A stretch of DNA of 63,991 nt, filler included, from Licmophora abbreviata (Eukaryota): assembly GCA_900291995.1 (NCBI GenBank). It is 40 parts of 40 records of this genome, joined end to end, with 100 filler letters (N's around TTAATTAATTAA, not from the genome) between each part and the next. Parts side by side here need not be neighbours in the genome. Positions count along the whole stretch, not along the records: positions 21,762 to 23,305 come from OLMU01006547.1; 39 more parts are not named here. One strand, given 5' to 3'. This document shows, one piece after another, positions 5,096-62,755 of this stretch (position 1 is the stretch's first letter; each line of letters starts with the position of its first letter). Made by a program: the position numbers and the translations under genes. The notes under the pieces were generated by a model, which saw nothing but the letters and a program-made list of their open reading frames with translations, searched no databases and was not told the origin of the DNA.

Positions 5096-6686
5096 AGACT
5101 TAAGAGTGTATGGACCTATCAAGTCTACACATAAGCGTTCCCAGGGTTCAGCTTCTGCTTCCTTTTCCGGTAGTTTGCCATATTTCGTGTAGGATCGTTT
5201 CGATTTCTGACACGTGGCACACGTTGAGCACTCTGCGTGCACGTCCGCGCGTAAATTTTTCCACCAGAAATGTTGTCTGATAGATTGTTCCGTGCGATTC
5301 TCGCCCGGGTGACACAGAATTGTATGATACCAGTTGACTGTGCGTTTCTGCAGGGAATTCGGAATCACGATTTTTCCCTGGTATGTTATGAGCTCAGACG
5401 ACGTCTTGCCGCCTCCACGAAAAGCCGTGAGAGCATAATTGGTGTTTGTGCCCGATTTGATGCGACGGAGAAGATCGGGGTCTTTGTCCTGAGCACGAGC
5501 AATAGATGAGAACCGCAAGGGGAAAGCATCTTTAGGAAGGTCGGAGTCGTCCAGACCAAAAAGTTCGCTCAGGGAATGGACATCCTGAGGAATAGGCTTG
5601 GGTGCCAAGTCGAGTCGACTGAGTGCGTCAGCGACGACGTTGTGTTCACCAGCAAGATGAACCAATTCGGGTCCATACTCTTCGAGGATGAGACGCCAAC
5701 GCATTACACGTTCGGTATTAAAGTTTTTATAAGTAAGATTCTTATGATCAGTGAATACTTTGATCTTCTGACCAAGGAATATGTTGCGGAACTCTTTCAG
5801 AGTTTCGACAATGGCCAAGAGCTCGCGCTCAGTGGTCGTATATCTGGTTTGAGCTGGATTCAGCTTGCGAGAGTAGAAGGCAATTGGTTTCCCATCTTGG
5901 GAGATGACTGCCCCAAGCTGTGTATTGCTTGCATCGGTGTGGATGTCAAAACGCTTGTTAAAATCTGGAAACGCGAGAAGCGTTTCGCGACTCACTATTT
6001 TCTTAGTGGTCTCAAAGGCTTTTTGTTCTGTTTCTGTCCATCGCCATTTGGCTTTGGAGGATGTAAGCGCAGTCAGTGGCGCTAGGACTTCGGATCGTCT
6101 GATCCACATGTCGCGGTAGTAGTTGACAAGTCCAATGAAGCTGCGAAGCTGCTTCTTGGTTTGCGGCGGTGCGATATTGTGAATCGCCTCCACTTTTTTT
6201 GTCATCGGTTGAATCCCACTTCGTGTGATCCAGTACCCTAAGTATTCGAGTTCGGAGCGTCCGAAAAACGATTTGGTTGCGTTAACTTTCAGTCCCGCAT
6301 TTGATAAGCGTTGGAGAACTCGATCGAGTTTCTCTAAATGTCTTCATATGTTGAAGTTGTCAAAACTAGAAGGTCATCAAGATATGTCCTAACAAATTCA
6401 AGCCCAACCATGAGCTCAGACATTTTCTCCTGAAATATGTCGGGACTGTTACATAAACCCATTGGGAGTCGTTGATATTCATATTTACCCCACGGCAGTA
6501 CAATCGTACACAGCCGTTTAGAAAAGGGAGTAAGTTCAATATGATAATAACCCATATTCAGGTCTAAAGAGGTTGCATACTGAAACCCTTCGAGTTTGAG
6601 TAATAAATCTTGTATTTTTGGTATTGGATATGGTTTTCGTTTTATCCTTTTATTCAGTTCTCTAAAATCAGAGATGAACCGAACCG
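5096..6686 (-). mobile_element. Ty3/Gypsy pol fragment (RT, RNase H, integrase Zn finger) with a 1-nt frameshift near 6337
   Basis: LDLNMGYYHI, LPMGL, YLDD, TDAS...GAVI, ERELLAI, NVVADALSR, H-H-C-C integrase motif; Gypsy domain order. Confidence 0.95.
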
Positions 6687-16823: not shown

Positions 16824-18371
16824 GAGACGAAGAATCGGCCGAACTGTCGTTCGCGGGCCATCAGGAAGCGGTGCGCGGAACGAGGGATTGCGCTGCCACT
16901 AGATGCGAATGGCAACTCGCGCTGCCTGCCCTACCACATTGTAGGGCAGTGCAATGAAAATTGTGGCAACAAAGCAGATCACCGCCACGACCACAGGGAG
17001 GAAGAGCAGGCCTCCCTGTTGGCGTGGTGTGATACCAACTGGCATCCTGAATAGGATGCCGGCAATGGCAGAGCGTTCGGGGGCGCTCGCCAAGAGCCAT
17101 TTTTCTCGCTGTCGACGACCTCGACAGCACCGCCACCCCCGCAGGCGGAGTCCCATAGTAGTAGTCAGCAACGTCCCCGTCCAGTCAAGCGCCGGGCGGT
17201 GGACATTGCTAGAACAGTTCATGTTAAGAATGATAAACTAGGTAAGAGTATACACCTAGATTTAGCGCTTCTGCATCGGCACGGTCTCACTACGCTTCTA
17301 CGCCTGCGACAGGGAGCTGGTGACTGGGGCAATCTACGCGCGGTGCGTCACCATCCGGCGCACCGCCTCTTGAGACACTACAGCGCTCATGGTGTCCCGG
17401 TCACCCTTGCCGACGCTCCCTGGTCGTACGGCGAGAAGATATCAAGCATCACTCGCGGGCCCCACAAGTCCGCCTACGAGCATTTGGAGTTCCTTCGGGA
17501 TGACATGGCAGACATGGTAACCAAAGGGTTCTGGGTGGTCCTCCCTTTTGCGGCAGTCCAGCACGAGCCAGGCTTGCGCATCAGTCCAATTGGGGTGGTA
17601 CCGCAGTCGGGGCGTCGATCTCGCCCGATCGTTGACTACACGTACTCCGGCGTGAATGACGTGACCCAACCCAACGCTCCCATGGAAGCGATGCAGTTTG
17701 GGCGGGCGCTCGATCGGATGCTGAGACGAATACTGCTGGCGGACCCGGCCAAGGGCCAGGTCCACCTCATGAAAGTGGACCTAGCCGATGGGTTCTACCG
17801 GATGCACCTCAGCCCCCGTAGTGCGCCTACCCTCGCTGTGTCCTTTCCAAGTCTCCCTGGTGAGCCGCCTCTCGTGGCTATCCCGACCAGACTTCCCATG
17901 GGCTGGAAGTTATCGCCGCCTTTGTTCTGTGCCGCTACAGAAACCATAGCGGACGTTACCAACCTGCAACTGCTTCGCCACGTTACCGCGTTGCCACACA
18001 CGCTCGATGACATCGCATCCAGTCCACCGCTCCCACCGCGTCCATCTTCGCCCGTGGATACCAACGTTGCCGTGCCAGTCCCCACTATCGCCGACCCTCA
18101 TCTGAACCCGGGCCGACGCCGGCGGCTGGCCTACGTTGACATCTACATGGACGACTTTTTGGGAGCAGTGCAAGGATCACCCGCCGCTCAGCAAAACCTG
18201 CGGCGTCTATTAATGCACAACATCGACAGCGTCTTCCGCCCTCTCCAAGCCCAAGATCCTCCAGCTCGTAAGGAACCCATCTCGGTCAAGAAGTTAAAAC
18301 AAGGCGATGCCGCCTGGTCCACCCAAAAGGAGGTGTTAGGCTGGCTCATAGACACTCACGCTATGACAGTA
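16824..18371 (+). mobile_element. DIRS-order (tyrosine recombinase) retrotransposon fragment A: gag end (stop 17052-17054) and RT
   Basis: gag C-x2-Y-H..C-x3-C-x5-H finger; RISPIGVVPQ, KVDLADGFY, LPMGW..SP, YMDD, LGW.ID. Confidence 0.9.
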
Positions 18372-21550: not shown

Positions 21551-21762
21551 GATGTTGCTGCTGATGAGGATGACAAAAGATGACGAGAGACGTCTCCATC
21601 ATCGACGTCGCATCGTCCACCAGACTTTTTTGTTGACAGTTCCATTTTTGATTTTGAGACGNNNNNNNNNNNNNNNNNNNNNNNNNNNNNNNNNNNNNNN
21701 NNNNNTTAATTAATTAANNNNNNNNNNNNNNNNNNNNNNNNNNNNNNNNNNNNNNNNNNNNT

Positions 21763-22071
21763 TGTTGGAGATAGTGTCACAGGAGTCCGATCGGTCGACG
21801 ACAGACGTGCGAACAAGGTTGAGGTTGGCGCGAAGAAGATCCGGAGCAGCTTGCGTTCGTATGCACACGTCGTCAGTTGTGGTTCTTCGAATGAGACGAA
21901 AATGCACGAAAAGCGAGTTTCGTGGCCGTCTCATTCTCTGGAAATAATCCCATCGTAGGATTGAGTTTGTATTTACTCTCTCGTTACGGATCGTTGTATA
22001 GATACCATCACTGAGCGTCATCCGCGGGCTAAGGGTCCACGGGTCGTGATCAGGATTTATTCAGCCTAACA
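21763..22071 (+). mobile_element. Putative 5' LTR (TGTTGG...CTAACA, about 309 bp) of Copia-like element A
   Basis: TG...CA ends with imperfect terminal inverted repeat; contig starts at the boundary; upstream of gag. Confidence 0.65.
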
Positions 22072-22122
22072 TTATTTCCAGAGAAAAAGGTTTTTCTGTC
22101 GTCTCTCTTGTGGACACGGTAT

Positions 22123-22470
22123 ATGACGAACGACATCGACGACCTGCTCAGACAGTTAGAAGTTCTACGCCTTGAAGAGACGAGGATCATCCGACGTATC
22201 GTGCAGGAGAGGGAAATCGTCGGGGATCGCGTCGGAGGAACGGGAACAGGAGCACGTCCAAGGACGAGGGACGGCGTGAACGCTTTCCAAATCGGCGACC
22301 GGGTGCGGATTACCAATCGCGTGAGAAACGCCATCGGTGTACCCACGTCGAACCCAGGCGACGCTACCGGGGTAGTGACGCGCATCACGGGACAACGCGT
22401 TCACCTCAGGACAGATCGCGGGAACGTGACGAACAGAGCGCCACACAATCTCACCCGGACGGATGAGTGA
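22123..22470 (+). CDS. Extra 115-aa ORF upstream of gag with a coiled coil and KOW/SH3-like domain
   Basis: FQIGDRVRITN...TGVVTRIT..RVHLRTD.G; stop overlaps the gag start (ATGAGTGA). Confidence 0.65.
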   Translation: MTNDIDDLLRQLEVLRLEETRIIRRIVQEREIVGDRVGGTGTGARPRTRDGVNAFQIGDRVRITNRVRNAIGVPTSNPGDATGVVTRITGQRVHLRTDRGNVTNRAPHNLTRTDE

Positions 22471-23305
22471 GCCAAACGACGGTGCGAGCACCGGAGCCAG
22501 CCGGCCGAGTGAAGGCCGCGGCGGACGAGGGGGCCGAGGTGCACCCCGGCGAGGCGGGGGACGCGGTGGCACAGGTAGTGGGCGTCCCTATGGAGGAAAC
22601 CGAGGATCGGGACCGGTGACGCCGGCGACCACCTTCAAGGGGAACACAACAGGTATGAACGGGCACGTGTTCCAAGTCTTCGGTGAGCAGACCGACCCCC
22701 AACAATTCCAACGTACCACCGACATGTTGAAGGAGTATTCGGCCAAAGAGCAGTCCTTCCCAGGAGACATCGCAGGTTTCTTTGTTGACCTTGAGAAGCC
22801 AACCATCGCCGAGCCAGCGGACCTGCCAGAAGAGGAGACCAACCGGCTTAAGGTCCTGATCTTCGAAAAAGCGGTCGCCTCTTACTGTCGACGGGTTGAT
22901 CAGCTCGACAGCAACATGAAGGCACTGTATGCAATCGCCTGGGGACAGTGTAGCGAGGCTATGCAGTCAAAGCTGATGGGTATCAGTGGATATGAGGCCA
23001 GGAGCAGGGAGCAAGATCTATCATGGCTACTCAAGGAGATCAAGGGCATCACCAGCAACTTCGAGAGTCAGCGCTACATCTTCGTCGGAATTGACGAGGC
23101 CAAGACGGCCCTCTTCTCGTACGTCCAAGGACCACACGAGACAAACGCAGCCTACTTCAAAAGCTTCAGGTCGAAGGTTGAAGTGCTCGAACACTACGGT
23201 GGATCGTTCGGACATGACCCGGCCCTCCTAGCCAGCATCAGGGACAAGGCAGGCGCACCAACGGATGAGGATGCGATCCTCAAGGCGGCGCGCGACCAGG
23301 CACTA
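22463..23305 (+). mobile_element. gag of diatom Copia (CoDi)-like LTR retrotransposon A, 3' truncated
   Basis: RGG-rich N-terminus, FKG...GHVF, WGQCSEAMQSKL, Q...E.NAAY...F. Confidence 0.75.
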
Positions 23306-26572: not shown

Positions 26573-26698
26573 NNNNNNNNNNNNNNNNNNNNNNNNNNNN
26601 NNNNNNNNNNNNNNNNTTAATTAATTAANNNNNNNNNNNNNNNNNNNNNNNNNNNNNNNNNNNNNNNNNNNNAGGTTCGATTTCTGCCTCTGATAAAA

Positions 26699-27323
26699 AT
26701 GAAATACTTAACAGATTATAAAAAATCAGCAATTGATTACTATAAAAAAGTTAGAAATTATGTAATGGTTTGTAAGGCTTTTGGTTGCAGTTGTTCCTCT
26801 TTGACACGCTGGGTTAATTAAGATAAATTTAATAATAATTTTTTCAACAAGAAGAAAGTAAAATATGGGGGTTATAAAATAAAAAAAATTCACATTGATT
26901 ATATTAATAAATGTTTATTAGAAAATAAAACGATTACTATAAAACAGTTAAAAGGATATTTAATGTTAAAATTTTCTTTAAATATTTCACAATCGCATTT
27001 AAGTCGTGTTAGTAAAAAAAATAAGTTTTTGTTAGAACAAAAGTAAATTAACTATTTTAGATAATGCAAGTTGTCATTGAACAGAAATAGTTAAAGATTT
27101 GATACAATTGAATAATAGCTTATTATATACAATTCCATATAATCATCGAACACAAGCTATTGAAGGTTTTTTCAATGTGTTAAAAAGTAAGCTTGCAAAA
27201 AAGAAAGGTTTTACTTATAAAGAATTGTGTGAAAATACTGTGAATGTTTTGAAGGAAATTCCTGAAAAAACGAATCAAAATTTAATTTGGGGTTGCTATT
27301 TTAAGCCTTATAAAAATAATTAA
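26699..27323 (+). pseudogene. IS630/Tc1-mariner-like transposase remnant in very AT-rich DNA
   Basis: DYKKSAIDYY...CKAFGCS.SSLTRWV HTH; LDNASCH* ...LLYTIPYN...AIEGFFNVLK DDE segment; internal stops and deletion. Confidence 0.75.
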
Positions 27324-27336
27324 AGTGTGTCATACA

Positions 27337-27619
27337 AAATGAGAATTGTCTTAAACATCTTCTATGTGATCCTACGCCTAAAAGATTAGCTATGGGCGGC
27401 TTAATTTCTTTACTCGAAGCTTACTACACCCCCGATGTTGAATTAAGTCAGAAGTTTAAAAGTTTCGTAAAAAATAAAAAACTCTCGAAAAAAAAGGGTG
27501 TGTCAGAACTTTAAGCTTTTTTCAAAGAAAATCCATTAGATTTCCTAAACACCCTAACATTTTATATTTTTTTAATCTCCATGTGGAAATTTTAAAAGCT
27601 TTTAAGACAATTCTCATTT
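27337..27619. repeat. Perfect 19-bp inverted repeat AAATGAGAATTGTCTTAAA (27337-27355 and 27601-27619), probable transposon TIRs
   Basis: Exact reverse complement; first copy lies just after the transposase stop. Confidence 0.8.
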
Positions 27620-27845
27620 CAAATAAAAAAATAATACTTGAAGTTGAAACGAACTTAAGAGTTAATTAATAAGTGTTACCATTCTTGAAGATAAATAGTT
27701 TTTGTGACTATTTTGGTTTATTGTTAAATAAAACAATATGCTTGGTTAGCATTATAAATACATAACCGAAACAGAAAAACATTAATGTTTTTTCTATCAG
27801 TGATGAAAAAGATAGAAAAAAAAAACCGCAGTTTTTTTAGATAAA

Positions 27846-28193
27846 ATGTCTCACCCATATTCAATAATCCTACGTAATCACAAAAATATTTTTGAGTGGT
27901 TGCTTAGCAGTCCTTTAATTATAGGATTGATATCCTTCGGATTAAACAATCCGACGCTTAATTCACACACCATTTTCGTTTTGAAGTACACGTTTTTAAC
28001 ACTATCTGTGTTAACGTGTCTATTGTTTATTTTCTTATCCATCAGACTTACGGGTAAGCATATCAGAAACTATAAAAAAGATGATATTGTAGGTTTAAAA
28101 AACCAACGTAAAAACATCTTTCCAATAGTTTTAAGTAAAAAAGCAGTTTTCTGTTTATTAACTTCTTTTTTATTAGCAGGCTTTTTTTTTAAA
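27846..28193 (+). CDS. Hypothetical membrane protein, AT-rich, 3' truncated
   Basis: Open frame with 2-3 hydrophobic segments; no recognisable motif. Confidence 0.35.
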
Positions 28194-28293: not shown

Positions 28294-29796
28294 CGGTGAT
28301 GATGCACGATTGTGTCAAGTGTTTCATCCCGTAGAAGAAAAAATATCGGGTGGTGCGATCGACAAACATCAACGTGTAACGTACACCACCAATCGCAGTA
28401 ACGTCACCATAGCCAATGTCCATATGGACAACATCCAAAAATTTGTTGGGACGGGGCACAGCAGTCGTATTACGACAGTCCTTCGTCTTGTTGGCCAATT
28501 TACCAATTTCCAAAGGAGTTTCGGCCCCAGAAATGACTTGAACTGACCCACTACCTGTTTCCTCAAGGCTCGACCATTGCTTTAGGGTTCGAAAACCCAA
28601 GTACTGATGGAGTTGTTGACCCGTAAGGCGACGGTGTGCGGTCGTCGTCGAAGAGGGTCGGTAGTATGGCATGGGCATGAGACGGTTATCGGAAGGTGAA
28701 GAGGTAGCAGGCGGCGATGTCGACTCATCACGCACTGGCGACTGGGATTCCTCAACAGACGCGGAATCCGTTGTCGAATCGACCGGGTGCAGTGGGGAAT
28801 TCAACATTCGACGACGACGAGCCGCTCTGGTCTCCATTTGAGGGCTGTTGACGGACCCGGTGACCATATTGGAAGACATGGTAGAGGTCGTGGTATCAAA
28901 GTTTGTAACCGTAGAATCCGGATCTGGCGAAGGCTTTGGGAACTTGTTCTCGGATGGGATCGTAGATGATACATCCACATAATCAAACTCATGTAGGGGA
29001 ATTGAAGTTGGTGATGTCACACGTTCAGTTGGTAGTAGACAATCAGTAGAATCATCAACATCCAAACGGAAGGTAGGAAATGTCAAGATACAATTCGAAT
29101 TGTCAGCGATGAAGGAACATCCAGGTTGACGGCGATGTTTGCGAACCGAAAATAATGGAGAACGGAGACCAGGAACGTGAAGAGCATCATTGACTTGGAT
29201 GAGTCTAGATCCAGAACGGAAAACCCAAGTACCAATACCGCATACAGGCAACGTACCACCGGTGTCGGCTAGGTTCACATGGTGTGACCCAGCCGGAAAA
29301 GTTGTATAATCGCGGAACTCACGCCGTAGAGGCACCATGTGATGAGTTGATCCGCTGTCGACCACCACCGATGAATAGCCAGTTGTATCTGTCGTCGATG
29401 GAACCGAGACGGCATCAACGCATCCCAAACAAATACTAGACGTTGGAGGAGAAACGGAAGGAAATGAACCAACGGTGTTCTCGACTGAATCGACTAAAGT
29501 GGAGTTATCAACTGTAAGATCTATGTTCGCAGCATGGGTCCCAGGATCCTCCGTGTCGAGTCGTATGTCACTATCATCCGCATTCCATGGCTCAACTAAA
29601 TCCTCATCCTGTAAAGGAGAGAATCTGTTAGTGGAACAAGGTGATGTGACAGTAGACGGCGAACACGGAGACTCGCTGGGACGCTGTCGAGACACAGTCT
29701 TAGCAGGAGAGAGCCACTTGCCTTGGTGATCCTTCATGGGTGCACTATCCTCAGGAGGAGGAGACGTCGAAGTCGCCGACGCCACACGTGCAGCCC
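28294..29796 (-). mobile_element. Copia polyprotein fragment (protease to integrase start)
   Basis: VVDSGSTHHM, LHVPGL..PLFSV, LH..LG, VHMDIGYG...Y.LMFVDR.TRY; protease-integrase order. Confidence 0.9.
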
Positions 29797-37868: not shown

Positions 37869-39089
37869 CCCATTGTCGCCTCCGTGTCCTGCGGCGTCGT
37901 CATCATCGCCTGTATGATCGCCCTGGTTGGAGCTTCCGCCGTCGCCGCTATTGCCACGAGCGCTCTGTGCTCTGCTTCCTGACCGGCCACCGCCGCGTCC
38001 GCCACCTCTGCCTCTGCCGCCTCGTCCACCGCGTCCACCGCCATTGTCTCGGTTCCGTTGTTCACCGTTATCCGAATAGAATGCGATACCGCTCTCGTCA
38101 TCATGGAGAGACGGACCTTTCGATCTTTCCGGGATAAAATTGACCAGATAATCGAATGCGGCGTTGAGGTCGGTGGGGAATTTGTTGTCGCCCAGTACGA
38201 AGTCATTCTCAAGGTGGCGCACAAGTCCATGGTACCTCTTAGGATCAGCATTGTTCAAAAACTTCACTGCCAGGTATCGTTGGCGTACCCATTCTTCGGC
38301 GGCAGTGCGCTCAGCTGCAGTTGGAGTTGCGGGGTTGGTTGCAATAGTTGCGAGGCGGTCGGTGATGCTGTCGCCTTGTAGTCCAATGTACGAGTGAAAG
38401 CTGTTCACTGTCCTAACAGCCTCCTTGAATTTCTCGAAATAGTCGTGGTCTGACATTTTTCCTTGACGGCAATTGACCAGATTGGAGTCCGCCTCGGTAC
38501 ATGTTTGAACGATGTACCGGCGGGTCTGTCGCTGCTGCATGCACAGTTGGATTATGCGAAGCAGTTTCATCACGTCTGAGGTGGCATCGACTGTGCCCCA
38601 GTCGGCATGGGCCTCAACGCGATTGCGGAGGGCTTGTGAACACTGTCCGAGGACCAGTGGGTACGCTCGACCGGATATTTTGTCTCGGGAGCGTCTTTGG
38701 TCGTCATAATGACGCCTGGAGTTTTTCCACAGCTCGAACTGTACGTTCGATGCGTTGTCTGCCGGAGGTGCTGGCTCAACCAAAGCTGGGAGCTCTAATG
38801 CAATCATCCCCGTGCGAAACTCACCGGCATTGTCGTATGATTTTCCGATGTACTCAGCAATCTCTCGGGTAGTGGTGGTGAATGTCTCTTTACCGGCGAC
38901 GACGTCGTATACGTGTCCCTTGAGGTCTTCGCACTTCCCTTGGAATCCCGATGAGATTGTGGATTTCTTGGAGTTCTTTTTCTTATTGCGGCGGCGTCCG
39001 CCGTCTCTATCTGAAGAGTCAGCGCTCGGCAAGTTCCTGCCAGACTCGTCGCCGGCGTTACTCGCCTCGCGATCAGATTCGCGAGACAT
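37869..39089 (-). mobile_element. gag of diatom Copia (CoDi)-like LTR retrotransposon B, 3' truncated
   Basis: FQG..EDLKGHVYD, VLGQCSQAL, FL..AD.KRY..L...LEN.F..G...FP; same gag family as 22463-23305. Confidence 0.8.
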
Positions 39090-39110
39090 TCTGCTTTTGT
39101 TGTTGGCAAA

Positions 39111-39352
39111 TGTTAGATCCACAAGTGCCCTCTGAGAGCCTCCACACCACTTGTGGTGATGGACTAGCAAACAGAGCAGCAAGGGCTATCAAACTCTTTC
39201 AGTTCTAATAGAGAGGTTTGCCAACAACAATGAGAGGTTCAGAGCCTCTCATTGCTGTTGGCCACCTTTACACGTACTACGCGCCTAGATGACTCAGCCA
39301 TTCCTCCGGCGTCTGACGCACGCACGGCATCAGCATATGACTTTGCTTCAAC
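39111..39352 (-). mobile_element. Putative 5' LTR of element B ((T)GTTGA...CTAACA, about 243 bp)
   Basis: Contig ends one base inside the TG terminus; same CTAACA 3' end as LTR A. Confidence 0.65.
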
Positions 39353-40919: not shown

Positions 40920-41348
40920 TGCCTCAGCCNNNNNNNNNNNNNNNNNNNNNNNNNNNNNNNNNNNNNNNNNNNNTTAATTAATTAANNNNNNNNNNNNNNN
41001 NNNNNNNNNNNNNNNNNNNNNNNNNNNNNTTCGCACGAGGTCCCATAGACCCCTGGTCCCAAATTCATGTCGAAACGTCAGGTAGATAGTCGCAACCACT
41101 CAGGTCGACTTCATGGGTCCATGGGTTCTTGATGTGAGTACTCGGTACACGTACAATTGTTCGTAGTAGGTGGTTCAGATGTGGCTGGTACCTGGTACAC
41201 TACCTGGAACGAAATGGGTACTAGTGGCCTTTGATGGGGTAACGCTAAGGTACAGTTTTCGAGAAACAGGAATGGAACCCGAAGCAATAGCTACTACGTA
41301 GCAGCAAACTAGTCACACACGCTAGTAGAAGAAATTAAAGCACGGCCT

Positions 41349-42503
41349 CTAGTTCTTCCCTGGACATAGAGATGAGACTGCTTCCCGCAAATTCGACCGT
41401 AAGATTGTTGTATTGACGATCAAATTGGACTGAACAAATTCAAGTCTTGGACAGTCGAACCGGTAGTCTTTACACTGCTCCATCATGTTCACCAGTCGCG
41501 TGTTGTTGTGAGGCAAATGTCCAAGCGAAAACACGTAGTTTTTGCCGAATGCCTTGGCATTCGTAAAGGGATCTTTGTTGTAGAGGACGGAACCTATCTC
41601 GATGATAGAAACTTCGGAAGGAGAAAACATCATGTTCACCAGATGCGATCCATGACTTGTTATCAAAATATCAAAAGAGGAACGGAATAGAGACACTTGC
41701 TCATTGAAGGAAGATGCAGCGTTCAAGGACAAGATCGAGACAGGAACGTCCGTAAACTCACGTACAACCCTCTTGATATCGTCCATGTTGATAAGCAGCC
41801 TAAGAGCGGACCCCTCTGTTCTCCTCCAAACGGCAATACGCAAGCGCTTTGCACACTGTAATTTCTTACTGACGGAAACCAACTTTGTTTCTTTTACAAA
41901 CTTCTGCCACTCATCCACAACTGAGCGTGGGTTCGTTCCGAGGTACAGCGCTCGAGAGAAGGGCTCCTGGTACACTTCTGCTCCGCATATCACAACATCG
42001 GTCGTCTTTATACCTGGTCTCATTTCACGACTAAGAATTTTCTCCCTCAACATATTTTGGTAAGGCAGGTACATGCTACGTTGATCTCTCCGACCCGCTA
42101 CAACTCCACGAGAAACAGCATATTCCCATACTAGATTGCTCATCCTTTCTCCCCAATCCCAGTGAGGGAGCATGCAATGATGATACAAGAGCAGATCAAA
42201 ACGGAGTGATGAATTGGAGTAGAAGCCAGTTGCGGCAACAAAGAGCTTCCCGTGTGCCATTATAAAGTGAGAGGGGTTCACAGCTTTCTCCCCCAGCCGA
42301 TTGCAGTTCATAGTCAAGACTCTGTTAGCAAAGGAAACCTTTGTGAGGGTACGATACGTTTCATAAGGAACCAACCAAGGTCTTCTTGAGCCCATCACTG
42401 AGCCCAGTTTCTCGGTGAATGAGTTCCAGTCCACAGAAGATTGATTTGTAATTGGGTCAGGCACGTCAAAGACCATCATGCCATCACGTCGAGAAAAACA
42501 GAC
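41349..42503 (-). CDS. Glycosyltransferase family 61-like protein (5' truncated)
   Basis: NPSHF, RR...R.L.N, SFNEQV.LF...DILITSHGS.L.N.MF...SIIEI. Confidence 0.75.
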   Translation of the reverse strand, partial: VCFSRRDGMMVFDVPDPITNQSSVDWNSFTEKLGSVMGSRRPWLVPYETYRTLTKVSFANRVLTMNCNRLGEKAVNPSHFIMAHGKLFVAATGFYSNSSLRFDLLLYHHCMLPHWDWGERMSNLVWEYAVSRGVVAGRRDQRSMYLPYQNMLREKILSREMRPGIKTTDVVICGAEVYQEPFSRALYLGTNPRSVVDEWQKFVKETKLVSVSKKLQCAKRLRIAVWRRTEGSALRLLINMDDIKRVVREFTDVPVSILSLNAASSFNEQVSLFRSSFDILITSHGSHLVNMMFSPSEVSIIEIGSVLYNKDPFTNAKAFGKNYVFSLGHLPHNNTRLVNMMEQCKDYRFDCPRLEFVQSNLIVNTTILRSNLREAVSSLCPGKN

Positions 42504-42603: not shown

Positions 42604-44070
42604 TTGGTTGGCTTACAGCGTCAAAATTGAGACAGCTTGCAATGAAGTGAAGAAGCCGTATCTGTATACGGAACGCACTACAACGCCTGCGACTGCATCG
42701 GATTCCGCCGATTTCGCCACCGCGTTGTACAAGAAACTTCCGTCGTTGGCACTGTCTTCCTTCATTGGTGATGATAAGACTTTCTACCAGTGTCACGGCA
42801 TCGAGATGTTCCAACGATTGGTGACTTTGTACGAACCTACGACATCGTTGGCCTTACAGAGTTTAGTGTCGGCCCTCATGACTATCAAGATGGCACCGGC
42901 CGAATCCTTCTCCGCCTACAAACTACGAATTGAACAGATGAATCAACGCCTTCGTTCGGTTGGTCAGGCGATTCCGGATCCCATGCTCATCCATGTGGCT
43001 CGACGTGGTTTGACGTCGGACTACAAGGACATGGTAACGCTGGCGGAGACTGGTACTCTTGTTTTCTCATCATTCTCGGAATTTGCTGATCGCTTCCAGG
43101 AATATGAGACAGGACGATCATCTGCAACTGGTCTTCCCGCCACTTCTACTGGTGTGTATGGATCGGCCAGGGCTGCTAATGGCTCCACGCCACCTGCAAC
43201 CTCCTCCAAGCCGTCGAATGAGCGTTCGTCCGATGCTACGTCGGATACAACGACCGCTTACGACTGGAAAGGGGCTGTGAACTTGTCTCTTCCTCAGGTC
43301 CAGACACTTCGGTCGAGCTTCGCGTGTCCATTGTGCCGAACCAACGATCATCGATTTGCTGAGTGCCCGGCTTTGAAGGCTTTCGACATCCGTCGAAAAC
43401 CCAAAATGCAGTCCGCGACGTCCAAGGAGTCGACAAAGAATGCCTCTACCAAGCCGTCTACCTCGGTGTCCCCCAAGGACGATAAGAAGATCACATGGGC
43501 TGCACGAGTGGCTTCGAGCACCATCTCTACGTCTCCTCCACTGGCTGAAACGACACTCAACAAGGATCACCAAGGCAAGTGGATATCTCCTGTAAAAACT
43601 GTATCATGCAATTTTCCCAGTGATTCTCCATGTTCGATGTCTTCCATCACATCATCTCGTTCCACTAACCGATTCTCTCCCCTACAGGATGAGGAATTGG
43701 TTGATATGGGGAATGAGAATGATAGTGATGTCCGACTAGACATGGAGGATCCTGGGATTTGTACTGCAGATACGGATTTTACAGTAGATAACCCCACTCT
43801 AGTGGACAATATTGGATATGTCATCCCGTCGTCTGCTCCTCCGGCTTCCAGTGTTTGCTTGGGTAGCATCGATGCAGTCTCGGTTCCGGCTACATCGACA
43901 CAGTTTTGTCCGTCGTCGATCGTGGTGGATAGTGGATCCACGCATCACATGGTTCCCCATCGTCGTGATTTTCGGGAGTACACCGCCTTCCCTGTGGACT
44001 CTCATCACGTGAAGTTGGCTGATCAGAGTGGTACGTTACCTGTTTGTGGTATTGGATCTTGGGTTTTCCG
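42604..44070 (+). mobile_element. Copia gag-protease fragment, same family as 28294-29796
   Basis: CCHC knuckle CPLCRTNDHRFAEC; shared DHQGKW.SP..NRFSPLQDE; VDSGSTHHM. Confidence 0.9.
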
Positions 44071-45640: not shown

Positions 45641-46737
45641 NNNNNNNNNNNNNNNNNNNNNNNNNNNNNNNNNNNNNNNNNNNNTTAATTAATTAANNNN
45701 NNNNNNNNNNNNNNNNNNNNNNNNNNNNNNNNNNNNNNNNTTGCTGTCACTACAATTTCCACGTAGAGATACTCGAGGTCTCGAGGTCTTGGAGAGCCGG
45801 GTGATGACACGTTTTGTGCGCCTCTCCTGCCACTCATTTCCTCCTACAGGAAGGATATCCGTCATGGTACTTGTATACCGTTGGTTCATATCCTGGATCG
45901 GCGTGTCTTGGGAATCTAGGATCAAAAATGGAAGCCGTTTCATGGACAGGAACCCGAAGCGGTGAAGCGGTCGGGCACCGACCATCAACTGATGTTGAAT
46001 TGACACTGCCTTTGTTTCCTTATGGAATCCACACATCCACACTAGATTTTGTGAGCCACAGTTAGACCCAGGTCAACGAAACCACCTAGAGCAGCCGTCA
46101 TCCCTGATTGAGTTAAGCTCTCGGTCGGCGAGCTTGGCGAAATGAACCAAGCTGGACTTGTATCGATGCGAGACTTCGTCTCCTTTTAAGGAACTCTTCG
46201 TCAACTATACCACGACATGGGAAAAGCGTGGCAGATGCACGTGGGAGAACCATCAGAAAGAACGAATTCTTTTGATGGCGGCAGAGCAGATACTTGAAAT
46301 CCTTATCCAGCTAGTTTTGAACTCAAGTGTCTCAAGCCCTACGCTATGTGTACAGCAACCTCGCGAAGCCTTTCGCTTCGTCGACAAGCCGTAAATCTCA
46401 GACAAACGTTTTCAGAACGTCTTTCCGGAGCAGTGGAAGGCCACGAAGAAGCTAGGCGCATAACTGGCGTTAATGGTAGGATGCGGTCTACGAGAGCGGG
46501 CATGTACGGTATCAGGATTGAATTTGCTAATGCCCACACCAACATGGCTGGTACAGACGAGTATAGAACAAGCAGAGTCGGGCTTGAAATCTATCATATT
46601 GCATAATGACGGAGAGTGGTGGCGACTGAAAGACAATGGCGACGTATTGCATGATAGTCTCTAGTAATTCGGGCACTCCAGTGCTCCAGCGATACCGTAT
46701 AATCACCGAAGTAGTAACAGTAAAGTGATCACGGCAT

Positions 46738-47210
46738 CTAGGTCTTCCCTGGACAAAGAGACGAGATGGCTTCCCGCAAATTCGATCGTAAGATATTTGT
46801 GTTGACAATCAAATCTTGCTGAGCAAATTCCCTTTGTGGAAGCTTAACCTTCTTTTTCTTTTGTTGCTCCATCATTGCAACCAGTCGCGTATTGTTGTAT
46901 GGCACATGTCCAAGCGAATATATGAATTTTTTTACAAATGCCTGGCCGTTGAAGTAGGGACCTTTGTTGTAAAAGATTGAGTTTAGCTCGATGATGGCAA
47001 CTTCGGATTGAATGAAAATCATGTTTACCTGATGCGATCCATGACATGTTATCAAAATGTCAAAAGATTGGAATAGAGAAACCTGATCCATGAAGGTGGA
47101 TTTAGAGTCCACCGAAGCAACGGCGAGCGGTATGTCAGAAAATTCGCCGACGACCCTCTTGATATCGTCCATGTTGACAAGTAGCCTCAGGGCTGTTCCT
47201 TCGGTTCTCT
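46738..47210 (-). CDS. GT61-like C-terminus, paralog of 41349-42503
   Basis: MDDIKRVV, FDILIT.HGSH..NM, ILRSNLREA.SSLCPGK shared. Confidence 0.75.
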
Positions 47211-52009: not shown

Positions 52010-52762
52010 AAGAAACATGGCGTTCATGTTGGTGACTTTCTCAACGTTCCAACCAGAAATATCGTGATTGAAAAAGGAGCCAAAAAACATGACGCTCATG
52101 TCAGTGACTCTCCCAACGTTCCAACCAGAAATATCTTGATTGAAAATGGAGCCAAAAAACATGTTACTCATGCTGGTGACGTTCTCAACGTTCCAACCAG
52201 TAATATCTATATCGAAAGAGGCACCAGAAAACATGTAACTCATGTCGGTGACTTTCCCAACGTTCCAACCAGAAATATCTTCACTGAAAGCGGAGCTAGA
52301 AAAAAGCCCTTCAAGACTCATGGTGTCAAAGCACCAATCCTTGATGGGACCGTAGGTTTCTTCGGCTTCGGCAGTAGGGAATGAAGAAACTTCAAAGGCC
52401 GCATCAACAGCATCGCGATCCGGAAAGCAAGGAGGAGGGCAAGCCTCGGGGGTAACTTGGTTTCCCCCAGCAATTGGATTGACGTCGGTGCAGCACAGGA
52501 ACTCATACGTCGTTGCGGGAGTAATGGTGAAGCCAGTGACGTCCTCATTGACGGTACAAGTGTCGCTGCAGACCATGGCTGGGCTCCTTGCGGAGGGATA
52601 CAATCCGCCTGGACAAGCAACGTCAAGATTGACGGTTGCGTCGTCGTTGGAGCCGCTCTTGATGCAGCAGATGGCTTCAATCGAGCGCATCAACAAGAAA
52701 GAACCCGTGAGGCACGCAAGGGGGAAATTGCGGAGCTTGTTCTTGTTCATGGTGAGTTTCAT
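52010..52762 (-). CDS. Secreted protein with DUF285/BspA-like 25-aa repeats, 3' truncated
   Basis: YGPIKDW; tandem FN.DISGWNV..VTDMS.MF encoded by 75-bp repeats; signal peptide and Cys-rich N-terminus. Confidence 0.88.
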
Positions 52763-58226: not shown

Positions 58227-58970
58227 GCAGGCCTCGCCATTGATCGCCTGTTGCACCAGCGTCTGGTCCGCAAACCGCACAACGACATTGCCCGTGAGCG
58301 CCGCGATCGACGGATCCGCCCCGTCGATCTTGCCATCGGCCCGGATGGTCTCGATGCGGTCGAGATTGTTGGCATAGGTGATATCCGCCGAGACCACATT
58401 GCCGATATTGGCCCCGTTGCGCGTGATTGCGCCGTTGAAATGCCCAAACCGCTGCAGGGGGACTGGCGCTGGAACGCCCGCGGCACTCGCGGTATCAACC
58501 TCCTCGCCCTGCGCCACGATGTTGACCGTGGCGGTCAGCAATCCGGACCGTGTCATCTGCCAGCTCAGGCTATCCACCATGCAGCCGGCATACATCGCAT
58601 AGCGCGGCACTTCCGGCATGCCGGTCTCCAGGGAGAACGAGGGCAGCGCCCAGTTTCCTGAGGTGAACTCATGCGCATAGGACGCCTCGGCTCCCGTTGT
58701 CGTGGGAGTGCCAAATGCCGCCTTCAGCCAGAACCCAAACGCCTCTGCATCGATCGGCACAACCACATTGCCATCCGCCGTCACCGCATCCTTGATCGGC
58801 GCCTGCGGGTCCCGGCCATAGCCCAGTAATTCAGATGTCTGCAGCGGCTGCTCTGCGCCGAGCGTGGTGCTGGCGAAGGGGATTTTCGTATAGCCGGTCG
58901 CAGGCGGCGTGCCGTAACTCGTCTCAAACGCAAGCGCCATCTGCGCCCGCGCCCCTTGGGCTCGTGCCAT
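58227..58970 (-). CDS. Phage tail tube protein, N-terminal 248 aa
   Basis: MARAQGARAQMALAFET.YGTPP, LLGYGRDP, LPS.S.ETGMPEVP; abuts 26572 in frame. Confidence 0.88.
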
Positions 58971-59064
58971 CGAATTGGTTCCTCTTTCTTGGTTGCAGTG
59001 TCAGCAGGCTTGACGCAGGGAATGTTTCGGCTCATTCGCGATATGGAACCAAACCAACCTGAGT

Positions 59065-61312: not shown

Positions 61313-62755
61313 GGACGCGGCTACTTCGCGGATCATCACTTCTCTGCCTTCCTCGCCTCTCAACTTCCTGAGTCCATCTCTTTTGCCGCGCGTCACAACC
61401 CCGACCCGGACACCTTAACCTATGACCAAGCCATGCGCTCCCATGACTCCCACCTTTGGAAGAAGGCTTCTCAAGCTGAAATAGACTCTCTCGTCGCCAA
61501 AGGAACCTGGGTTGAAGTCCCCATCAGCGACGCCAAGACCAAGATCCTTCCCGGCACCTGGACCTACCGCCGCAAGCGAACCCCTGACGGCGAAGTGAAG
61601 AAGCACAAGGCACGCTACTGTGTTAGAGGCGATCTCCTTGACAACACAAACGAAGACTTCTACTCACCAGTCGTCGGCTGGCCCACCGTTCGTCTCTTCC
61701 TCACCCTCTCCCTCATCCTTGGCTGGACTACAATCTCCATCGACTTCACCAACGCCTTCGTCCAAGCCACGCTTGAACACCACGTCTGGATCCACCTTCC
61801 CCGTGGTTTCGTTTCATCTAAGGGGAAAGGCACTTGCCTACGGCTGGTCAAGTCACTATATGGCCATCCCGGTGCGCCCAAACTCTGGTACCTCCACCTT
61901 CGCAGAGCCATCTTCAACCTCGGCCTCACCCAAAGCCAAATCGATCCATGTCTCTTCTTCCGAGCCGATCTCATCATCGTCCTCTATGTAGACGATGCCG
62001 GTCTCGCCGCCCCCGACGCATCCATCATCGACAAGTTTATCCAGGACCTCCGTGACCAAGAATTCGACCTGACCAAGGAAGGCAGCTTTGCCGAGTTCCT
62101 AGGCATCAAGTTCACTAAACAAGATGACATGGAATTCAAGCTGACCCAGCGAGGACTCATCGACAAGGTCATCTCAGCCACCGGACTCGACAACTGCAAG
62201 CCAAACCTCCTTCCAAGCACCCAACTCGCCCTCGGTGCCGACCTGGAAGGACCCCCGATGAACGAAAGCTGGAGCTATTCGTCCGTCGTCGGCATGCTCT
62301 TGTATCTCTCCGGCAACAGCCGACCCGACATCGCATACGCGGTGAGCCAAGTCTGTCGCTTTTCTGCCTCCCCAAAACAGAGCCACGCCACAGCAGTCAA
62401 GACGATCGTTCGATACCTATCCGGCACCCGCGATGAAGGTACCATCATTCGTCCGACCGGAAAGCTGAACCTGGACCTCTTTGTCGACGCTGATTTCTGC
62501 TCACTTCATGGGCGCGAAGACTCACGTGATGTCAACTCTGCGCGTTCGCGCACGGGATACATCATCCTTTTGAGTGGAGTACCGCTTCTTTGGAAATCTC
62601 AGCTCCAAACTCACATTTCCCTTTCCACGCTTGAGGCTGAGTATTCCGCCTTGTCCTATTCCTTGAAAACACTCATCCCTCTCAAGCGCATCCTCGTTGA
62701 ACTCGTCACAGCTCTCAGCATCGATCAAGAAATCAGCTCATCGGTTCAAGCTCGA
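61313..62755 (+). mobile_element. Copia RT/RNase H fragment, open frame
   Basis: KHKARYCVRGD, IDFTNAFVQ, KSLYG, YVDD, FLG, SRPDIAYAV, FVDADF, LSTLEAEY. Confidence 0.96.

Follow-up and report, generated by a model that had tools for sequence, protein, structure and literature searches.

In Tf1 of Schizosaccharomyces pombe, reverse transcription is primed by the element's own RNA: according to the available part of the source, the transcript's initial 11 bases anneal to the primer site, with RNase H cleaving between bases 11 and 12 (PMC7175516). A similar self-priming proposal was made for Tj1 (PMC4600332). For plants, the accessible sections of Neumann et al. (2019) report self-priming as predicted for 12% of the elements, including the Copia TAR lineage, cite an earlier self-priming proposal for Houba and Osr-1 (credited there to Capy, 2005), and describe the half-tRNA sites found in Copia as conserved, namely 1/2 tRNA-Met or 1/2 tRNA-Ile (PMC6317226). 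The initial annotation of the locus analyzed here had taken self-priming to be undescribed in Copia, an assumption that has to be given up in view of the prediction for the plant TAR lineage in the accessible text of that study.

Diatom genomes contain Copia-type elements as a major component that is activated by stress, and a term search of Maumus et al. (2009) found no text on primer sites, tRNA or priming (PMC2806351). A full-text literature search, in which few subscription journals are represented, retrieved no description of self-priming in diatom elements. Self-priming as such is of a known kind, described for the Tf1/sushi group and predicted for plant TAR elements; within the literature searched, what is new here is the putative instance in diatom-type Copia elements, represented by two elements (A and B) and a metagenomic family (M).

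Results

The Analyzed Window and Its Contigs

The analyzed window, i.e., the whole stretch of 63,991 bases, consists of 40 contigs of 1136–1605 nt each, ordered by falling length and joined by linkers of the form N44-TTAATTAATTAA-N44 (e.g., 21662–21761), and does not represent a single locus. Since it is a chain of unrelated contigs, distances between pieces are meaningless and linkage can be assumed only within the 1544-nt contig of element A (piece 14, 21762–23305). Element B lies on the minus strand of piece 24 (37869–39352), and the two elements are unlinked. The GC content of the 40 pieces ranges from 0.26 to 0.68. Eukaryotic genes among them comprise a protein kinase, BEACH, WD40/Utp12, DUF285 and several retroelement fragments, and bacterial or phage genes are present as well, including a GntR/UTRA regulator, a dihydroxy-acid dehydratase and a phage tail tube protein. 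The latter (58227–59000, minus strand; PF18906, E = 8.5e-51) is located on a contig of 61% GC and is phage or prophage DNA. The underlying assembly is fragmented and a mixture of diatom-like and bacterial or phage contigs.

Five other retroelement fragments were recognized at 5096–6343 (−), 17055–18371 (+), 28295–29794 (−), 42605–44068 (+) and 61313–62755 (+). One of them is a Gypsy pol with RNase H and integrase zinc domain and another an RVT_1 piece; two are related Copia gag-pol pieces that contain Pol_BBD, and the remaining one is a Copia RVT_2 piece. No LTR end of any of the five was found within the window. An apparent pair of LTRs at 41323–41823 and 46712–47209 (71–80% identity, 5389-nt spacing) was rejected, as the two stretches are GT61 glycosyltransferase paralogues, each encoded on the minus strand of its own contig. 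Further repeats in the window are a 19-nt exact inverted repeat (27337–27355 with 27601–27619) on a contig of 26% GC (26673–28193), and three tandem 72-nt units at 52010–52297, read as 144-nt copies of 82% identity, within a minus-strand DUF285-type ORF.

LTR Boundaries and the 14-Nucleotide Complementarity

The contig of element A starts at 21762 with a single T, which is followed by TGTTGG from 21763 on, and CTAACA extends up to 22071 (Table 1). Neither a second (3') LTR copy nor the pol of element A is present in the window, and the LTR was therefore checked on outside data. Contigs from three DNA runs contain small shares of the element A contig, and pieces of element A occur in two other studies. 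One contig of run X2 matches 21941–22071 and then diverges, which confirms the LTR end at 22071 given in the initial annotation; another matches element A from 21763 on and carries 214 unrelated letters in front of it. Because the contigs of this independent run diverge at both ends, 21763 and 22071 are breakpoints in independent data.

Table 1. Coordinates of the features of elements A and B in the analyzed window.
Feature	Position	Strand	Description
5' LTR of element A	21763..22071	+	309 nt, TGTTGG...CTAACA; contigs of an independent run diverge at both ends
TCA/TT initiator-like motif	21931..21935	+	predicted transcription start 21933/21934; motif kept in A, B and M
Putative self-primer of element A (first 14 nt of predicted R)	21934..21947	+	TTCTCTGGAAATAA; exact reverse complement of 22072–22085
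Putative primer-binding site of element A	22072..22085	+	TTATTTCCAGAGAA; adjoins LTR end
ORF1 of element A	22123..22470	+	115 aa, between primer site and gag; overlaps gag start codon (ATGAGTGA)
gag N-terminal part of element A	22463..23305	+	281 aa, runs off contig end; 41–51% identical to gag of 79 metagenome loci
5' LTR of element B	39111..39352	-	at least 242 nt; contig starts one base inside TGTTGAAG...; ends CTAACA, resembling A
Putative self-primer of element B	39217..39230	-	TTGTTGTTGGCAAA; directly 3' of CCTCTCA
Putative primer-binding site of element B	39097..39110	-	TTTGCCAACAACAA; 14 nt exact complement
gag ORF of element B	37869..39089	-	407 codons, ATG at 39089, runs off contig

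Reading of the sequence verified the observation from which the analysis started, namely that an internal segment of the LTR of element A has its exact reverse complement in the 14 nt flush with the LTR end. This segment comes right after TCTCA, the A of which is position 21933, and when the last A of the LTR is counted the pairing amounts to 15 nt (21934–21948 with 22071–22085). The 14-mer has exactly two sites in the window, one per strand, even with one mismatch allowed, while the expectation from shuffled sequence is 0.01 and none of 100 shuffles reached two matches. No TGG follows position 22071, and a TGG-type tRNA site is indeed lacking after this LTR, as had been annotated.

The claim that an element B shares this layout with a different 14-mer was likewise correct, with the element lying on the minus strand of the other contig. 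The junction between its LTR end and primer site reads GATCTAACA/TTTGCCAACAACAA, also given as GTGGATCTAACA/TTTGCCAACAACAA, and its 14-mer, too, has no sites beyond these two (0 of 100 shuffles). Only seven inverted repeats in all 40 pieces are exact over 12 nt or more at a spacing of 40–400, and the pairings of elements A and B account for two of these seven.

Regarding the coding capacity, the gag ORF of element A has no Pfam match, and the gag of element B is only distantly related to it (24% identity over 199 aa, E = 7e-15). At the place of the CCHC zinc knuckle of its relatives, the gag of element B shows a glycine/arginine-rich (RGG-like) run (alignment A1). ORF1 is extra to element A and missing from family M; its best Pfam match, the MS_channel beta-domain, is below threshold (E = 0.01), and no ORF1 homologue of 63–202 aa was found.

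Assignment to Diatom-Type Ty1/copia Elements

The Copia assignment, originally made from gag motifs, was corroborated by the presence of PF07727 (RVT_2) in full-length gag homologues. The gag of element A aligns with the N-terminal end of 36 longer proteins at E values between 1e-67 and 1e-5; 17 of the 36 carry PF07727, and one bears the name of the diatom Fragilaria crotonensis. The homologous polyproteins have 1650–1750 aa. A re-scan of the homologues located the zinc knuckle at about 300–430 and RVT_2 at about 1100–1400 of 1650–1740 aa. For integrase, Pfam rve was not detected in the homologues, PDB sequence searches were equally negative, and a PDB profile search returned zinc-knuckle proteins only. 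The alignment of 16 of these proteins (A3) has invariant columns at CCHC (about 373), LLDSQST (about 420), D641/D701/E737 and YVDD (1310–1313), followed by RNase H-like DAS.../E/D residues, and the D,D,E integrase-like motifs (about 640–740) sit in ...IHAD.EFEC...GEVERSIRTIKER.... On this reading of the motifs, the domain order of the homologues would be the Copia order of gag, protease, integrase, reverse transcriptase and RNase H.

Further Ty1/copia traits are the TG...CA ends of the LTR (A and M) and a purine-rich tract before the 3' LTR (M). Membership in the Tf1/sushi clade, which has a Gypsy-type reverse transcriptase and the integrase after RNase H, was rejected, as the homologues carry RVT_2 with the integrase-like motifs upstream of it. 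The nearest clusters in a protein atlas are from Eukaryota, most often Bacillariophyta, which we take as a lead only.

A Family of Relatives in Metagenomes

JGI metagenome contigs were scanned with the gag alignment, which gave 165 confirmed stretches, and 79 loci of these were analyzed; a scan of viral contigs found no relative. All 79 loci belong to one family, M, the gag of which is related to that of element A at the level given in Table 1. The LTR of family M reads ...CTGTTCA/TTCTTTTTGATTAA/TCCCAT... and its end ...AACA/TTAATCAAAAAGAA, i.e., a third 14-mer in a like layout. Of the 66 loci with an upstream stretch of 250 nt or more, 40 contain exact arms of 11–19 nt. A context-anchored search recognized both arms in 41 of all 79 loci, with perfect pairing in 30, one mismatch in nine, two mismatches in one and three in another; the primer site only was recognized in 12 further loci, and neither arm in the remaining 26, mostly truncated copies. 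All deviations from pairing within the family are one-sided, so that family M reflects the degeneration of a recently amplified family and contributes further copies but no covariation.

All copies of family M seen are decayed or broken: no intact full-length relative exists among the 79 loci, the longest frame in any of them is 1200 aa, and L003 is frame-shifted. In six two-LTR relatives (L003, L015, L024, L041, L046, and L079), TGTTGAG...AACA repeats lie about 5.2–5.4 kb apart and share the TGTTG...AACA ends of element A; purine-rich ...GAGGAGCG precedes the 3' LTR, and the primer-site sequence is found only after the 5' copy. In L047 (4152–4500), and likewise in L048, unrelated sequence adjoins an M LTR end, with a second partial LTR end and primer site about 240 nt farther on, an arrangement that looks like a nested or rearranged family M copy.

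These copies bear on the question whether the match between LTR and primer site might have arisen by chance or as an assembly artefact, for which one could point to the short contigs of a fragmented, mixed assembly that make up the window. Since the layout recurs in the 40 independent metagenome loci, since pieces of element A are present in other studies and since shuffling did not reproduce the match of either 14-mer, we regard such an origin as extremely improbable.

Covariation and Predicted Folding

That the 14-mer and the primer site covary between families, as had been proposed from A and B, was substantiated once family M was included: all 10 substitutions in the LTR segment (10/10) are accompanied by the complementary change in the primer site. 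Compared to family M, the 14-mer of A is changed at five of 14 positions and that of B at five others. Four M copies were aligned with A and B, which amounts to three independent families only. In this alignment, a 16-pair helix has 95.8% of its cells paired, with 10 pairs changed on both sides and none changed on one side. None of 500 shuffles scored as high on any measure, and slid controls were 38–56% paired. The 14 core pairs are Watson–Crick in 84 of 84 cells, G-U being entirely absent.

RNAalifold recovered the helix of 14-mer and primer site unprompted. When the stretch that runs from the 14-mer through the primer site (21934–22085 in A) is folded, both the minimum-energy and the centroid structure close with this helix in A, B and M, with z values of −4.0, −3.8, and −3.9, respectively, and none of 200 shuffles was as stable in any family. 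With regard to an extra U5-IR-like stem-loop inside the closed loop, the predicted folds are multi-branched, and among the inner helices drawn by RNAalifold some double changes stand beside broken pairs.

The covariation demonstrates that the pairing is kept and not what the pairing does, and a helix with another role in the RNA, such as cyclisation, packaging, dimerisation or translation control, with something else acting as primer, has to be considered. A model for this is Ty1, the RNA of which has 5'–3' interactions. Moreover, GalEa Copia elements of fungi are devoid of a classical primer site and possess a conserved hairpin of unknown role (PMC5445492). Against such a structural role, the downstream arm is positioned exactly where the minus-strand primer binds, flush with the confirmed LTR end, and no other candidate site is present; furthermore, a structural helix would be expected to tolerate G-U pairs, none of which occurs here. 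Taking both sides together, we consider a purely structural helix rather improbable.

A second alternative concerns host RNAs. Priming by half-tRNAs is known in Copia lineages, according to the accessible part of PMC6317226, and a host tRNA fragment or other host small RNA might prime elements A, B and M as well, in which case the match to the LTR would be incidental. None of the three primer sites starts with TGG (0/3). No tRNA gene is present in the window, and a scan of 30 of the 79 family M loci detected a single tRNA, tRNA-SeC, in both L055 and L057 (3090–3176, minus strand), about 3.5 kb from the M insertion; no match of at least 5 nt exists between the three primer sites and this one tRNA, the only one compared. 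The three sites differ from each other at 5–9 of 14 positions, on which ground membership among the half-tRNA-primed hemiviruses was rejected, and each has its exact complement at the equivalent place of its LTR. Host priming would hence require three different host RNAs, each mimicked in cis, and we judge it very unlikely.

An inverted repeat that spans the U3/R junction and covers part of the putative self-primer was observed in element B (39262–39220, minus strand; 18-bp stem, 7-nt loop, z = −8.5) and in element A (21889–21898 with 21927–21936, plus strand; 10-bp stem, z = −2.0). In the RNA, the repeat might shield the primer segment's 3' copy; alternatively, it may represent a promoter palindrome. 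No such repeat was found in family M (z = +0.7), and the hairpin was accordingly dismissed as a conserved part of the mechanism.

The Initiator-Like Motif and the Edge of the Pairing

In A, B and M the LTR arm begins right after TCA with TT as its first bases, and the pairing stops at TCA/TT. The sequence TCAH(+1)W was proposed as a diatom initiator-like motif by Kadono et al. (2015), as given in the available text (PMC4686930), and the commonest form of the oomycete INR is TCATTCT in the part of PMC3599244 at hand; TCATTCT is present in both A and M. The initial annotation had suggested an initiator-like motif with the start of transcription at about position 21933, an A. The motif itself fits TCAH(+1)W as quoted from the accessible part of PMC4686930, whereas its +1 position would fall on the first T of the 14-mer and not on this A. 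The match of a 5-nt motif thereby suggests that the 14-mer may represent the first bases of the transcript.

A point against the self-priming reading is that the A of TCA has no partner in most copies; were transcription to start at that A, the primer would carry one 5' overhang. Variation at the distal edge of the primer site follows what the self-priming reading predicts. In L013, L018, and L067, which may be a single subfamily, an A>T change just past the primer site creates an extra pair with the A of TCA (16 nt), and in L009 the LTR has a T replacing the A of TCA, which also leads to a pairing of 16 nt. In L075, 5 nt are inserted precisely at this distal edge, so that the pairing reaches TTCA (19 nt). 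Variants of the L075 and L013 types are few. A site re-copied from a primer that shares its 5' end with the RNA would be expected to vary specifically at the edge in this way.

Self-priming might also proceed from other than the extreme 5' end, with transcription starting upstream of TCA and the 14-mer being cut out on both sides or used in trans from another RNA copy, in which case the helix would represent the primer duplex but give no indication of the transcription start. The junction inverted repeats of A and B would fit this scenario, as they form in RNA only if the sequence upstream of TCA is transcribed, which at the 3' LTR is always the case. However, the complementarity stops exactly at the initiator-like TCA/TT in three families, the boundary variants are explained most simply by a primer with the RNA 5' end as its own, and family M has no junction hairpin. 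We therefore regard an internal or trans-acting primer as unlikely, and a primer consisting of the very first bases of the RNA is the reading followed below.

Discussion

The predictions of the self-priming hypothesis that could be tested on sequence held, i.e., the LTR ends, the lack of TGG, the exact and family-specific complementarity, the closing helix and RVT_2 in the homologues, and the hypothesis as put forward in the initial annotation is supported. Taken all together, A, B and M are probably members of a Ty1/copia lineage of the diatom type in which the element's own RNA, and not a tRNA, initiates reverse transcription in a Tf1-like way, for which we infer the transcription start and the RNase H cut. 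Following this, we propose that RNA polymerase II would start at the TCA/TT initiator-like site in the LTR and that the first 14 nt of the transcript would fold back over R-U5 to pair with the 14 nt flush with the LTR, a step for which the complementarity is observed and the fold is predicted. By analogy to Tf1, the RNase H of the element may then cut the transcript where the paired segment ends on its 3' side, after nucleotide 14, freeing a 3'-OH, from which the 14-nt RNA would prime minus-strand strong-stop DNA and fix the LTR end at CA. In the last step, plus-strand strong-stop synthesis would copy the primer and rewrite the primer site in each cycle. Rewriting of this kind would explain why the match is exactly Watson–Crick, specific to each family and ends at the predicted RNA 5' end. 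Moreover, if each cycle re-copies the site from the 5' end of the RNA, the distal boundary, which differs between copies (14, 15 or 19 nt), would record the start site of the parent transcript.

Should self-priming be confirmed for these elements, a third and distant self-priming group would be added to the Tf1/sushi Gypsy elements and the TAR Copia elements of plants, which bears on the question of convergent versus ancestral origin. It is conceivable, if doubtful, that self-priming is general and perhaps ancestral in the whole diatom (stramenopile) Copia lineage and independent of Tf1/sushi and TAR. The idea that early LTR elements self-primed and that tRNA priming came later was raised previously (PMC3601003), and a general or ancestral occurrence in diatom-type Copia, if true, would add weight to it. 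There would also be consequences for annotation. In Cyclotella cryptica, the accessible description states that only LTR candidates with a polypurine tract and an LTRdigest primer site were kept (PMC7466962), and, if the elements self-prime, pipelines that demand a recognized primer-binding site may discard or mis-bound elements of this kind. Under the same premise, the pair of 14-mer and primer site would provide a simple sequence test of recent activity (perfect versus decayed pairing) as well as a well-defined site for compensatory mutagenesis in a diatom that can be transformed.

Among known systems, Tf1/Tf2 and the Tf1/sushi group (Tj1, Tcn1, and sushi; Ty3/gypsy chromoviruses) resemble the elements described here in having a site flush with the LTR that is complementary to the predicted 5' end of their own RNA, in the apparent lack of a tRNA-type site, and in a 5' end that folds over R-U5 and closes a multi-branched structure, which in our case is predicted. 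By contrast, they belong to another superfamily, as the homologues of the elements presented here carry RVT_2 with integrase motifs upstream of the reverse transcriptase. Furthermore, the duplex has 11 nt in Tf1 as compared to 14–15 nt here, and the elements of this study, which are known from sequence alone, have a diatom host. The fungal GalEa Copia elements, with their Conserved Hairpin Site, likewise lack a classical primer site; however, they have a local palindrome at the primer-site position for which the authors found no complementary LTR segment (PMC5445492), whereas the partner of the primer site in the elements analyzed here is located 120–138 nt upstream inside the LTR. Hemivirus-type Copia elements with an internal half-tRNA primer (copia, Ty5, Osser, Bryco, and Bianca) share a primer site without initial TGG. 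Their sites match one conserved host tRNA, according to the accessible text of PMC6317226, in contrast to the family-specific sites found here, which match the element's own LTR. The plant TAR elements, including Houba and Osr-1, are, as described in the available part of the same study, Copia elements without a tRNA-type site for which self-priming was predicted from sequence; these represent a green-plant lineage, whereas the elements described here are of the diatom type.
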